A stretch of 4,120 nucleotides of DNA, from IMG/VR virus record IMGVR_UViG_2740892274_000011; one strand, given 5' to 3'. The translations under genes and the position numbers were made by a program. The notes below the pieces were generated by a model. That model did not search any database. It saw only the letters and a list, made by a program, of their open reading frames with translations, and was not told the DNA's origin. Positions 847 through 3,633 of this stretch are shown here, in pieces; the first letter of the stretch is position 1; each line of letters begins with the position of its first letter. The stretch is from a virus (lineage: Duplodnaviria; Heunggongvirae; Uroviricota; Caudoviricetes).

Positions 847-863
847 CATCTGACAAAATCAAT
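847..863. repeat. direct repeat copy B (catctgacaaaatcaat), right boundary of the AT-rich insert
   Basis: Near-identical to 251-265; overlaps the U-tract of the minus-strand terminator. Confidence 0.4.
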
Positions 864-890
864 ATAAACAGCCCCTCCGGAGAGGGGCTG
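851..890 (-). terminator. rho-independent terminator of the minus-strand cargo unit
   Basis: 9-bp GC-rich stem (869-877 cagcccctc / 882-890 gaggggctg, loop cgga), followed on the minus strand by UUUAUAUUGAUUUUGUC. Confidence 0.7.
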
Positions 891-965
891 GAGAGTGGCG
901 CTATGTGCCATTGCATGGTGCCGGGTGCCTCCCGGTGAATTCAGTACCAGCACCTGAATCCGCGA

Positions 966-1201
966 TTATCCCATATACCTACTCGCTGATTGCCCCTCCG
1001 CACAGGGGGATTCACCATGCCAGTTTCTTTTAACAAACTCCCCGCAAACCAGACAACAGTCAACCGCCTGAATTGTGAAGTATTTAAAAATTTCTCCCGC
1101 TAACTGATACCCGGCTAACAGTCTGGCGTTTTCTTTTTCAGCAACGGGAAAGCAACAACCACCACACCCGCCACCAGCACACCGTCAGCCAGCACTGACA
1201 T
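966..1201 (-). pseudogene. candidate ~79-aa membrane-anchored ORF interrupted by a frameshift in an A-run (or read by -1 frameshifting); the N-terminal 28-codon ORF (1115-1201) encodes MSVLADGVLVAGVVVVAFPLLKKKTPDC
   Basis: ATG at 1201-1199. A 72-codon open frame with no canonical start (1184-969, stop 968-966) lies in the -1 frame and overlaps the 28-codon ORF. Adding one A to the A5 run at 1133-1138 fuses them into MSVLADGVLVAGVVVVAFPLLKKENARLLAGYQLAGEIFKYFTIQAVDCCLVCGEFVKRNWHGESPCAEGQSASRYMG. Weak RBS. Confidence 0.25.
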
Positions 1202-1281
1202 TATCCGGCTGCTGCAATGCCATTCACAAAAACAGTAAGCAATCACTTTTTACCGTAACAGGTGATAATCCAGATATGTAT

Positions 1282-1608
1282 CTACCCCAGATGAGTAATC
1301 CGAAGTTCATCCATACCACAGGTCCTGGCTATTCTGTTGTACTCCTGAACAAGAGCAAATAATTCTGAATTAGCAACCATGAACTCATCGCAAACCCTCT
1401 GTATAGCATCACTATTCAGAATAATAACGTCTCTTCCCGAAAGACGATCAGGAGTACAGAACAAAACTGTCAAACGGCTGAAGGCCTTTGCTCGTGCTGC
1501 ATTGACTATATCAATACGCTGCCTAAGGATGAAACACCCCGACGCCTCATCAATATTCACTCTACCCACACCATATGAATGATAAATATTTAATGCTGAA
1601 AAAACCAT
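1282..1608 (-). CDS. hypothetical protein, 108 aa from the ATG (117 aa from the upstream TTG at 1635); unrecognised cargo gene in the stx-equivalent position
   Basis: Open frame bounded by TAA just upstream of 1635 and TAG at 1284-1282; lies directly downstream of the phage tRNA genes on the late transcript; 6 of 11 Arg codons are AGA/AGG and 3 of 10 Ile codons are AUA; weak RBS at every candidate start. Confidence 0.45.
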   Translation of the reverse strand: MVFSALNIYHSYGVGRVNIDEASGCFILRQRIDIVNAARAKAFSRLTVLFCTPDRLSGRDVIILNSDAIQRVCDEFMVANSELFALVQEYNRIARTCGMDELRITHLG

Positions 1609-1745
1609 TAGACCGTATAACAAACACTCAATCAATACTTAACAGAACTTTTATTTTTGACAAACATAAAATATTTTCAACAATATCCTGAGCCAGGTAT
1701 ATTTCAGTATAAGGCTCTGCCGGAAGGAATCTGGAAGAATGAATA

Positions 1746-1822
1746 TGGCGCGCTGTACTGGATTCGAACCAGTGACCGATTGCTTAGAAGGCAATTGCTC
1801 TGTCCGGCTGAGCTAACAACGC
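1746..1822 (-). tRNA. tRNA-Arg (anticodon UCU), phage-encoded (argN/argO type of Stx and lambdoid phages)
   Basis: rc reads GCGTTGTTAGCTCAGCCGGACAGAGCAATTGCCTTCTAAGCAATCGGTCACTGGTTCGAATCCAGTACAGCGCGCCA; 7-bp acceptor stem, D-stem GCTC/GAGC, anticodon stem ATTGC/GCAAT with loop CTTCTAA, T-arm ACTGG-TTCGAAT-CCAGT, encoded CCA. Confidence 0.9.
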
Positions 1823-1836
1823 TGAATACCGATAAT

Positions 1837-1916
1837 GGACCGCCATCGGGGACCCGCCCCCGCACCAACAACCCTGTTATCGTGTCGTCTGCTCTTCCTG
1901 ATAAGCTAATGGCGGT
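1837..1916 (-). ncRNA. degenerate tRNA-like element (possible tRNA pseudogene in the middle slot of the cluster)
   Basis: 8-9 bp acceptor-like stem (ACCGCCAT...ATGGCGGT) followed by CCA; D-arm-like TAGCTTATCAGGAAGAGCA; GC hairpin CGGGG-GCGGGT-CCCCG in the T-arm position but no TTCRA T-loop and no anticodon stem that pairs. Confidence 0.25.
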
Positions 1917-1922
1917 TTGTGA

Positions 1923-1998
1923 TGGTGGCCCTTGCTGGATTTGAACCAGCGACCTGGCGATTATGAGTCGCTCGCTCTCACCACTGAGCTAAAGGGCC
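1923..1998 (-). tRNA. tRNA-Ile2-like (anticodon CAU; ileX/ileY/ileZ type, formally also compatible with tRNA-Met)
   Basis: rc reads GGCCCTTTAGCTCAGTGGTGAGAGCGAGCGACTCATAATCGCCAGGTCGCTGGTTCAAATCCAGCAAGGGCCACCA; canonical cloverleaf; anticodon loop CTCATAA; closely resembles E. coli ileX as recalled. Confidence 0.9.
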
Positions 1999-2100: not shown

Positions 2101-2955
2101 TTATGACGAATTTACCACAGATTCCGGAAAAATCAACCTAGTTACCTTTTTTAACTGCCGCTCAGCCCATGCTTCTTCAATATCAAACCGAGTCACCAGC
2201 GCATCATAGAATTTCTTAACTGTTTTTTCCCATGACGCGCGTGTTATCTGGTTTGTCACCTCGCATATAGCATTAAATGCCTCCGTTGATGGTAGTCTTT
2301 CATAGCCACGACCACCACAACGCTGGCAGTCTCTGATAACAGGCATACCACGTTTTACCGACTCTTCACGATGAATGGCGACACCACGCCCACGGCAATC
2401 CTTACAGGCGGTGGAAACCTCACCCTTTCCGCCACACTCCGGACAGGCAACTTTTACCACCTCCCTGACTTTTTTCCATTCTTCCCAGTAAGACGGATAC
2501 ACACCTTTCGTACACTTTGCCCATACCGGCGGCTTACCATCCGGATACTGGACCTTGTTTGTAAAAACTACGCTTTCAATAAATTTTTCCCCATAGCAAC
2601 AAGGGCACTGCTTTTTACTCGCTGCGCTGCGGGCATAATCCTCAAAAGCGTACGAAGCCATAATGCGCATCACTACCGGTTTTATTTCTGCCGGAAGTTT
2701 TCTCAACGCCGCCACACGATCGCACCGACTGAGTGCATAATCTGCCAGTAATTCTGTTGCCCGCGCCCTGTCATTCATACTGATGCCCATTTTCCCCAGG
2801 AACGCAGAAAACCCCATCTCAGCCCGATTCTGTGTCATGCCCTGCGCGGCCATCACATCAGTGATACTCAGCGCATCTTTTGACGTTGAGGCCGATGCAT
2901 CGGTCAGGCAAGGGGATTTTGGGGAGTAGTATTTCGGTAAATCTTCCAGTTTCAT
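2101..2955 (-). CDS. putative late-gene antiterminator Q (long 82/Qin-type), 284 aa, cysteine-rich with CxxCxGxG zinc-finger-like repeats
   Basis: Position is diagnostic: immediately downstream of rusA and upstream of pR'/tR' and the tRNA cluster. The start ATG (2955-2953) overlaps the rusA stop (ATGA). Motifs CPCC, CPECGGKG, CKDCRGRG, CQRCGGRG. Confidence 0.6.
   Translation of the reverse strand: MKLEDLPKYYSPKSPCLTDASASTSKDALSITDVMAAQGMTQNRAEMGFSAFLGKMGISMNDRARATELLADYALSRCDRVAALRKLPAEIKPVVMRIMASYAFEDYARSAASKKQCPCCYGEKFIESVVFTNKVQYPDGKPPVWAKCTKGVYPSYWEEWKKVREVVKVACPECGGKGEVSTACKDCRGRGVAIHREESVKRGMPVIRDCQRCGGRGYERLPSTEAFNAICEVTNQITRASWEKTVKKFYDALVTRFDIEEAWAERQLKKVTRLIFPESVVNSS
2109..2136 (-). 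promoter_or_regulatory. candidate late promoter pR' (extended -10 type) overlapping the 3' end of Q
   Basis: On the minus strand: -35 TTGATT (2136-2131), 16-bp spacer, TGG + TAAATT extended -10 (2117-2109); the predicted transcript to the terminator is about 65 nt. Confidence 0.35.
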
Positions 2956-3211
2956 TTTTTGACCTGCTCTTCATGCATTATGGGGTAAATCTTCACCCCC
3001 AGACGTCCACCAGATACTGGCTGACCACGAACGATATTGATTTCATCAAACTGCTCATCGTCCATTAACACTCCCGCATGTGTCAGTGCATCCAGTGGTG
3101 CTTTCAGGATATTGTCCAGGTCACGACGGCGCTTATCCGGTGGCTCTGCAATAATCTTTATCGCCAGTCTTCCGGACAGGCTTAATTTCAGTCGCTGCTG
3201 ACGGACAATAA
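2952..3211 (-). CDS. rusA: RusA-family Holliday junction resolvase (partial; 5' end lies in the N gap)
   Basis: Translation ...KRRRDLDNILKAPLDALTHAGVLMDDEQFDEINIVRGQPVSGGRLGVKIY... matches the RusA core motif (RRRDLDN..KA..DALT.AG..DD), as in DLP12 RusA; stop TGA at 2954-2952; 86 codons visible. Confidence 0.85.
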
Positions 3212-3633
3212 NNNNNNNNNNNNNNNNNNNNNNNNNNNNNNNNNNNNNNNNNNNNNNNNNNNNNNNNNNNNNNNNNNNNNNNNNNNNNNNNNNNNNNNNN
3301 NNNNNNNNNNNNNNNNNNNNNNNNNNNNNNNNNNNNNNNNNNNNNNNNNNNNNNNNNNNNNNNNNNNNNNNNNNNNNNNNNNNNNNNNNNNNNNNNNNNN
3401 NNNNNNNNNNNNNNNNNNNNNNNNNNNNNNNNNNNNNNNNNNNNNNNNNNNNNNNNNNNNNNNNNNNNNNNNNNNNNNNNNNNNNNNNNNNNNNNNNNNN
3501 NNNNNNNNNNNNNNNNNNNNNNNNNNNNNNNNNNNNNNNNNNNNNNNNNNNNNNNNNNNNNNNNNNNNNNNNNNNNNNNNNNNNNNNNNNNNNNNNNNNN
3601 NNNNNNNNNNNNNNNNNNNNNNNNNNNNNNNNN
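3212..3633. other. assembly gap (422 N)
   Basis: Run of N in the sequence. Confidence 1.

Follow-up and report, generated by a model that had tools for sequence, protein, structure and literature searches.

In lambdoid phages, late-region accessory genes of the "moron" type occupy a hotspot located downstream of the antiterminator gene Q, the terminator tR' and a tRNA cluster, and upstream of esterase and lysis genes. The Shiga toxin (Stx) operon stxAB is the cargo of this kind found in Stx phages; other examples are TciA/TciB, IraM-like proteins and Psr-type AraC-family regulators. Reading downstream from Q, the Stx2 phage 24B has pR', qut, terminators, three tRNAs, a terminator, stxAB, small open reading frames (ORFs), a full-length DUF1737 esterase gene and the lysis region. 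In phage JLK-2012 and in O157:H7, the genes following the tRNAs are tciA (TerB-like) and tciB (DUF3927). Here, the same hotspot is analyzed in a stretch of 4,120 nucleotides of Caudoviricetes DNA (IMG/VR record IMGVR_UViG_2740892274_000011; "the window" in the following), in which the interval contains a 92-codon frame, ORF92, located at positions 1282 to 1560 of the minus strand.

The explanation which best accommodates the data, and to which a probability of about 0.5 is assigned as a whole, is that ORF92 is a real moron gene encoding a cytoplasmic, probably oligomeric helical binder. Together with a DUF3927 gene, it would fill the stxAB interval of the late-region cargo hotspot in an stx-negative lambdoid prophage. 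The reality and the boundaries of the gene, the class of its fold, the slot and the mobility of the cassette are matters of observation. The product would be a soluble cytoplasmic protein of 92 residues, made up of two long antiparallel helices and a short hairpin loop, with the conserved residues mostly at coiled-coil core positions, including a buried Arg23/Asn64 pair. Such a protein would most likely form a small oligomeric helical bundle, and may serve as an inhibitor or a regulator that binds another macromolecule stoichiometrically. Transcription would probably occur by Q-dependent read-through from the late promoter and, as in its relatives, as a small unit of its own.

Coding status and limits of ORF92

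In an initial annotation, made from the sequence of the window, an ORF of 108-117 aa had been placed at 1282-1635. The open frame exists on the minus strand and includes the peptide quoted there, reading 117 aa from a TTG at 1635 or 108 aa from an ATG at 1608 in the ORF listing, but the length supported by the comparisons described below is 92 aa, from a GTG start at 1560-1558 to a TAG stop at 1284-1282. The length of an ORF is not in itself proof of a gene, since a 126-aa ORF antisense to Q is also present in the same window. ORF92 is regarded as a gene because it is conserved across diverged variants and homologues.

Three variants were compared, namely the window sequence (variant A), the sequence from the O43 strain RM10042 (variant B, locus L003) and that from ETEC4079 (variant C, locus L004). 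Their pairwise DNA identity is 67-72%, and in all of them the 92-codon, GTG-initiated frame has identical ends and no indels. Differences at codon positions 1, 2 and 3 amount to 19-24, 18-23 and 40-44, respectively, third positions differing about twice as often as the others, and the ratio of non-synonymous to synonymous substitution rates (dN/dS) is 0.26-0.27. The sense frame is the only one devoid of stops in 10 out of 10 homologues. An antisense ORF at 1379-1582 on the plus strand was rejected, as antisense frames contain stops in most homologues; its dN/dS is nevertheless similar to that of the sense frame, because the two share wobble positions. A terminator-like hairpin at 1446-1428 was treated as a chance occurrence, since it is located inside the conserved coding frame.

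The start site was evaluated by several tests. The three variants become similar about 35 nt before the GTG at 1560, and A and B about 80 nt before it. The segment 1561-1635 on the minus strand, formerly read as an N-terminal extension and here assigned to a 5' leader, is homologous at the DNA level to variant B but frame-shifted there, and is unrelated in variant C. ORF92 relatives sharing 20-40% identity begin with MSEINFEA or MINPVPEA, which align with the (V/M)NIDEA found at the GTG, and the RefSeq annotation of variant C (WP_001017777.1) gives a protein of 92 aa. Polymorphism was evaluated on the 79 near-identical copies of variant A which could be extracted from viral contigs, all 79 of which are intact. 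Of the changes in the 92-codon core, 6 are synonymous and 5 non-synonymous, an excess of synonymous ones over what the share of synonymous sites predicts under neutrality (P = 0.02), and the 25-codon extension has 1 synonymous and 5 non-synonymous changes, plus an indel allele. In addition, no Shine-Dalgarno sequence was found before the ATG at 1608 or the TTG at 1635; a weak Shine-Dalgarno-like GGTG/GGG lies just upstream of the GTG at 1560, where variant C has AGGAG. The models of 108 and 117 aa were rejected on these grounds, i.e. the broken or unrelated upstream frame, the start of the family alignment, the polymorphism and the Shine-Dalgarno check. As judged from sequence comparison, ORF92 is most likely a genuine, conserved protein-coding gene of 92 aa, starting with the GTG at 1560, and the possibility that it is not a gene appears essentially excluded.

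The ORF92 family

An exhaustive HMMER search of 1.84 billion representative proteins detected 20 clusters of the ORF92 family, and a profile search of 5.8 billion proteins detected 40 relatives. They are found in Escherichia/Shigella, Citrobacter, Salmonella, Serratia, Morganella and Xenorhabdus, and full-length members range in size between 91 and 110 aa. Two subfamilies may be distinguished, one featuring a TPDR loop motif and the other beginning with MSEINFEALGRCQHLK. R23, N64 and N75 are invariant throughout the family; L12, V71 and A78 are invariant or nearly so, and Y74 is conserved in most members. Cluster members are named "hypothetical protein" in all public sources, apart from occasional labels evidently due to mis-clustering.

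The ORF had initially been described as not assignable to any family, and this agrees with the results of the searches. No NCBIfam match was found for ORF92, the best Pfam hit was RHIM, at 12.8 bits against a cutoff of 20, and scanning 21 family members with Pfam revealed no family common to more than 2 of them. Similarly, no defence family was detected in a PADLOC-DB scan at E<=1. The family search proposed with the initial annotation returned no well-characterised family, its only match being PHROG 2873, which is listed as of unknown function (E = 3.8e-70, 233.9 bits, residues 10-117 of the longer reading aligned to profile positions 1-108 of 108). On the basis of this alignment, ORF92 and PHROG 2873 are the same protein family, although the PHROG profile was built on the 108-aa gene call, whereas 92 aa are supported here. 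PHROG 4827, also of unknown function, is matched more weakly (4.2e-05) and represents a remote relative.

At the DNA level, ORF92 is found in 1,314 of 5,426 complete E. coli genomes; the copy is at least 99% identical to that of the window in 1,179 of them, and only 60-80% identical in 128. Carriers include EPEC (enteropathogenic) strain E2348/69, the EAEC (enteroaggregative) strains 042 and 55989, O104:H4 and an ST131 strain. ORF92 is, in summary, a well-documented conserved hypothetical of a small, narrowly distributed and uncharacterised family.

The stx interval

The initial annotation had described the window as sharing the scaffold of Stx phages, with an ORF in place of stxAB. As for the scaffold, Q (PF03589), the terminator and the tRNAs are all present, but only two of the tRNAs are intact, the argN copy being degenerate. 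The statement about position is correct, because Stx2 phages match the terminator and tRNA segment of the window and 24B holds stxAB at that place: the tRNA cluster is 92% identical overall to that of 24B, in which terminators are annotated at a position analogous to 2042-2061 of the window, and the interval which in 24B is occupied by stxAB contains ORF92 and the DUF3927 gene in the window. Some phage records match the tRNA cluster and the region of the small RNA (sRNA) STnc100 in two joined pieces, and STnc100 marks the downstream edge of the cargo slot.

As regards the genes occupying the slot, a survey of which had also been proposed initially, the comparison covered stxAB of 24B, tciAB of JLK-2012 and O157 and the ORF92/DUF3927 pair of the window. 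tciA is missing from the window, and DUF3927 recurs in several prophages both with the TerB-like TciA and with ORF92. Among 50,697 phage records, the ORF92/DUF3927 segment was found in one, mEp460_ev081, and ORF92 was found in no sequenced Stx phage. ORF92 thus has a distribution typical of morons, being inserted among conserved phage genes and lacking in phages that are otherwise related. It shares with the other lambdoid cargo genes the same hotspot and a cassette-like mobility, with terminators around its relatives; in contrast, neither its sequence nor its structure relates it to Shiga toxin or to the rest of the cargo, and its product is cytoplasmic and non-enzymatic in appearance. Membership of the Shiga toxin/AB5 group, which would call for homology to the StxA N-glycosidase or the StxB pentamer subunit and for a signal peptide, was evaluated specifically and rejected, as no Pfam hit was obtained, the predicted fold is an all-helical hairpin and no N-terminal hydrophobic signal could be read in the sequence.

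Mobility and expression

Genes of the ORF92 type are located between Q, or a methylase gene, and the holin gene in prophages of E. coli, Citrobacter, Morganella and Serratia. The Citrobacter prophage has Q and, further on, the ORF92 homologue, a TerB-like gene, DUF3927 and the holin; in Morganella the order is Q, methylase, ORF92 homologue and holin, and in Serratia Q, ORF92 homologue and holin region. The succession of ORF92, a TerB-like gene, where present, and DUF3927 recurs in Citrobacter and in variant C'. Intrinsic terminators are found in Serratia and Morganella both upstream of the homologue and 15-70 nt downstream of it, and in variant C a terminator directly follows the stop codon. 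The region preceding the Serratia homologue also contains an extended -10 element (TGTATAAT), about 35 nt from the start, and then an AAGGA Shine-Dalgarno sequence.

Other homologues are located outside late operons. On porcine and bovine E. coli plasmids they lie beside a PapB-regulated K88-type fimbrial operon, and on plasmid pTD225C4_139 (NZ_CP035861.1) an unannotated homologue of 96 aa (locus L178, 4983-5273) is located between the lytic-transglycosylase and pilin-like genes of a type IV pilus operon resembling that of the bundle-forming pilus (BFP). The pilin-like gene of this plasmid is mis-annotated as a dehydrogenase E2 subunit. In Xenorhabdus, the homologue resides in a cargo island within a Mu-like tail module. 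Taken as a comparison of sequence contexts, these arrangements suggest that ORF92 is an autonomous accessory cassette which behaves as a moron.

As far as the window copy is concerned, read-through from pR' would be a reasonable source of expression, since no convincing promoter precedes the gene and the next terminator after it is that of STnc100. That the Q-antiterminated transcript would be its only source is not supported, in view of the relatives, which are bracketed by terminators, in some cases provided with a promoter-like element and in others carried by plasmids, outside late operons. No LexA-type operator was seen upstream of ORF92 when the region was read by eye.

Predicted structure

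AlphaFold2 models were obtained from inputs of 6 and 21 sequences, and display the same fold, with mean predicted local distance difference test (pLDDT) values of 85 and 88 and predicted template-modelling (pTM) scores of 0.71-0.73. A helix spanning residues 3 to 33/35 is followed by a short hairpin loop at about 36-48, a second helix at 50-81 and a short tail. Structure prediction combined with a Foldseek search had been suggested initially as a means to identify the protein: it provided a confident hairpin fold, but the structural matches are generic and pointed to no specific relative. One of them, the prefoldin beta subunit fold, resembles the model in shape only, with identities of 3-16%, Foldseek E values of 0.14-0.24 and archaeal or eukaryotic taxa. 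The predicted fold is therefore described as a generic alpha-hairpin, with no specific structural match.

When the conserved residues are placed on the helices, L12, R23, N64, V71, Y74 and A78 follow the 3-4 spacing of a heptad core, as read from the sequence, and N75 flanks the core. In this arrangement R23 and N64 are expected to lie opposite one another in the hairpin, as a buried pair. Buried polar pairs typically set the register and the oligomer state of coiled coils. Helix 1 is basic, in contrast to the acidic loop and helix 2, and the protein as a whole is close to neutral. Family proteins of 92-99 aa have an estimated mass of about 10.5 kDa. Reading the sequence by eye revealed no signal peptide, transmembrane segment or catalytic motif, and it is unlikely that ORF92 encodes an enzyme, a pore-former or a secreted toxin.

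Several points weigh against the moron gene and helical binder proposed here. The gene starts with GTG, preceded by a weak Shine-Dalgarno sequence, and a promoter scan of the window copy revealed only weak promoter-like sites, none of which is a clear promoter. Variant A has no annotated gene in any of the RefSeq complete-genome entries listed, and GenBank submitters have annotated the same ORF at 108-118 aa, with an N-terminus that is probably wrong; the annotation of variant A is thus a systematic gap or inconsistency. More generally, the case for ORF92 is built on sequence comparison and on a predicted structure, and the suggestions that the protein oligomerises and acts as a binder derive from the lack of catalytic features and from analogy.

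Alternative explanations

A more specific possibility is that ORF92 is an anti-activator, or a partner, of a prophage AraC-family regulator of the Psr/PatE type, to which it would bind stoichiometrically, the window copy acting in trans as an orphan. The idea originates from the genomic neighbourhood. An AraC-family gene of 241-242 aa is located on the same strand, 89-130 nt upstream of ORF92, in two diverged lineages, namely at three loci of variant B and at two of a C-like variant, P0024; positions of this Psr/PatE-like gene are 3969-4694 in L262, 4142-4870 in L264 and 4322-5047 in L003. Identity between the lineages is 64% for the AraC proteins and about 61% for the ORF92 proteins, so that the pair seems to have diverged together. 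In addition, the window copy keeps the intergenic leader of the pair, without the regulator. The prophage regulators PsrA, PsrB and PatE control acid resistance and type III secretion in enterohaemorrhagic E. coli (EHEC) (PMC10877973). The link is, however, not obligate, because in O157:H7 (L266) a related AraC gene occupies the corresponding position and leads into tRNAs and tciAB instead of ORF92. Similarly, the Citrobacter, Serratia and Morganella copies, like that of the window, lack the AraC gene, and the synteny could merely reflect an inherited mosaic order.

Small proteins of this kind are known from other mobile elements: TraM binds TraR, Aar/ANR binds AggR and Aqs1 of phage DMS3 binds LasR. 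TraM (of the Ti plasmid), ANR/Aar and Aqs1 resemble ORF92 in size (about 70-100 aa), in being all-helical hairpins likely to oligomerise and in being carried by mobile elements, and ORF92 adjoins an AraC-family activator in some lineages; nevertheless, they have no detectable sequence homology to ORF92, and the structural match to TraM is generic, being no better than those to hundreds of other hairpins. The ANR family comprises proteins of less than 10 kDa, with three helices and conserved A10, E14, A22, W26, A29, W43 and R47 (PMC4983702). Membership of the ANR/Aar family was rejected, as the ORF92 family lacks this published signature and the conserved Trp pair, has two long helices and is made up of proteins of about 10.5 kDa. 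An anti-activator role is, on balance, unlikely. By the same analogy, ORF92 might found a new family of mobile-element anti-activators, directed against AraC-type regulators or against those of plasmid adhesin operons, a suggestion which is tentative and probably does not hold.

Alternatively, ORF92 could be a phage life-cycle protein of the late operon, for instance a regulator of lysis timing or of late transcription, rather than cargo directed at the host. The location on the late strand, between Q and holin, is the same in four genera despite identities of only 20-40%, and in Morganella the homologue is directly upstream of the holin. This role is quite improbable, considering that terminators separate the ORF92-type gene from the holin, that ORF92 is found in just 1 of the 50,697 phage records and that copies exist on plasmids and in the tail-module island of Xenorhabdus; moreover, the protein has no transmembrane segment, unlike an antiholin.

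A relation to GapR (UPF0335/DUF2312) was also considered. GapR is an alphaproteobacterial nucleoid-associated protein which clamps overtwisted DNA, and a distant relative of it would be expected to bind DNA. GapR chains, corresponding to five distinct sequences, are the top PDB hits of the ORF92 family profile (E = 0.05-0.25). Alignment with hhalign, performed with GapR inputs of one sequence, 71 genomic sequences and 140 genomic plus viral sequences and controlled by shuffling, covers 47 columns, including the N-terminal helix and a G-x-D-V-K-I-L-like motif (P = 0.0013); the score of 23.1 exceeds those of 200 out of 200 column shuffles and of 199 out of 200 period-7 shuffles. Like ORF92, GapR/UPF0335 proteins (PF10073) are helical and about 90 aa long, the similarity over the first 47 residues being below threshold but above the shuffles; helix 1 of ORF92 is basic, as noted, and GapR homologues are abundant in viral contigs. 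The match is nonetheless not significant. GapR was retained as a rival of low probability, because hhalign assigns it a probability of only 12-19%, the score does not increase when the GapR profile is broadened, the Pfam model hits none of 21 ORF92 family members and the predicted helix topology is different. A GapR-like sensor of DNA topology in gammaproteobacterial phages is thus less likely than a family of anti-activators.

The initial annotation had mentioned a toxin or a defence protein among the options, and a component of a toxin-antitoxin system may be added to these. In favour of these options, related phages have stx in this slot, ORF92 is followed by a small hydrophobic DUF3927 peptide and prophage morons often exclude other phages. 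The results, however, point away from these functions, which are very unlikely: no PADLOC hit was obtained, no signal peptide, transmembrane segment or enzymatic motif was found on reading the sequence, DUF3927 is not a constant partner, as variant B, Serratia, Morganella and the plasmids show, and the fold is a plain coiled-coil hairpin.

Finally, an open frame arisen by chance or the decaying remnant of a larger gene, which the missing annotation among the RefSeq entries listed, the GTG start with its weak Shine-Dalgarno sequence and the degraded surroundings (insertion sequence fragments, DUF1737 pseudogene, pseudo-tRNA) might suggest, is highly improbable in view of a dN/dS of 0.26, the equal length of the three variants, the sense frame being the only open one, the 79 intact copies out of 79 and the distant homologues, all of 91-99 aa with the same ends, and no longer homologue, of which ORF92 could be a fragment, was found in the profile searches.

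Other features of the window

All late-region genes of the window are on the minus strand. The first in transcription order is a RusA-type gene, part of which is masked by 423 consecutive N at 3211-3633. It is followed by the Q-type late antiterminator (2101-2955, minus strand, 284 aa), identified by Pfam (PF03589, 7e-55) and by PHROG 127, "anti-termination protein Q-like". Near-identical prophages of RefSeq have a Q of 273 aa instead of 284, and the profile matches of the window ORF end at residue 273, which suggests an 11-residue C-terminal extension in the window, probably due to an altered stop codon.

Between Q and the tRNAs, a tR'-like intrinsic terminator is located at 2042-2061 on the minus strand, with a 7-bp stem including 5 GC pairs, followed by TTTTATTG. 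The tRNA cluster (1746-1998, minus strand) is of the ileZ-argN-argO type. Two tRNAs are detected in it by both ARAGORN and Rfam, namely tRNA-Ile2 (CAT), or ileZ, at 1923-1998, and tRNA-Arg (TCT) at 1746-1822, both on the minus strand. A degenerate argN pseudo-tRNA, at approximately 1823-1922 on the same strand, was revealed by alignment to 24B: in comparison with the phage copy, it keeps the acceptor stem, the D-arm and a CCA-like end, while the anticodon arm is diverged and contains an insertion and the T-loop is altered. ARAGORN, Rfam and the RefSeq (PGAP) annotation all skip it.

The DUF3927 gene (1115-1246, minus strand), called "TciB" in phage JLK-2012, is located 35 nt downstream of ORF92 and encodes a hydrophobic peptide of 43 aa; it is annotated by RefSeq (PGAP) in the identical regions of strains 042 and 64. 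Next comes the STnc100 sRNA (860-1049, minus strand; Rfam RF02076, 132 bits against a gathering score of 47), whose GC-rich terminal hairpin, at approximately 870-893, also faces the convergent iraM-like gene. ORF92, DUF3927 and STnc100 could form one transcription unit with an sRNA at its 3' end. In variant B, ORF92 is followed by several STnc100/PasD-like repeats (L003, approximately 2640-3600), as judged from recurring "MVNPPVRRG" pseudo-ORFs.

An IraM-like anti-adaptor gene is located at 499-834 on the plus strand (NCBIfam NF007393, 162 bits against a cutoff of 121), in agreement with RefSeq, and is a further small cargo of the stoichiometric-inhibitor type in the same interval. Because it lies within the late region but on the other strand, late transcription would have to cross this gene in antisense. 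The fragment of a DUF1737 gene at 65-253 on the minus strand (PF08410, 1.5e-15) is the remnant of the esterase gene located after stx in Stx phages, and its equivalent in RefSeq (PGAP) is a partial pseudogene. The near-identical DNA of E. coli 042 and strain 64 continues into holin, lysozyme, Rz and terminase genes.

At the other end of the window, between 3860 and 4120, the prophage is cut by insertion sequence (IS) debris. About 150 bp of this segment correspond to the end of a multi-copy element of the IS3 family, presumably IS2-like, with 22,983 matching places in 4,769 genomes, and include the first 22 codons of the transposase. This end is joined to a sequence which elsewhere adjoins the istB gene of IS21. 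In protein P0017, found on 20 contigs, the beginning of variant-B ORF92 is joined to this same IS3-family end.

Implications

The analysis provides a corrected gene model, of 92 aa with a GTG start, for a sequence contained in about one quarter of the complete E. coli genomes, and adds one more, probably autonomous, cargo cassette to those known from the most consequential cargo slot of lambdoid phages. The recurrence of ORF92 beside AraC-type regulators and adhesin loci is a testable lead to a small regulatory binder. If ORF92 were indeed an anti-activator, orphan copies such as that of the window would act in trans.

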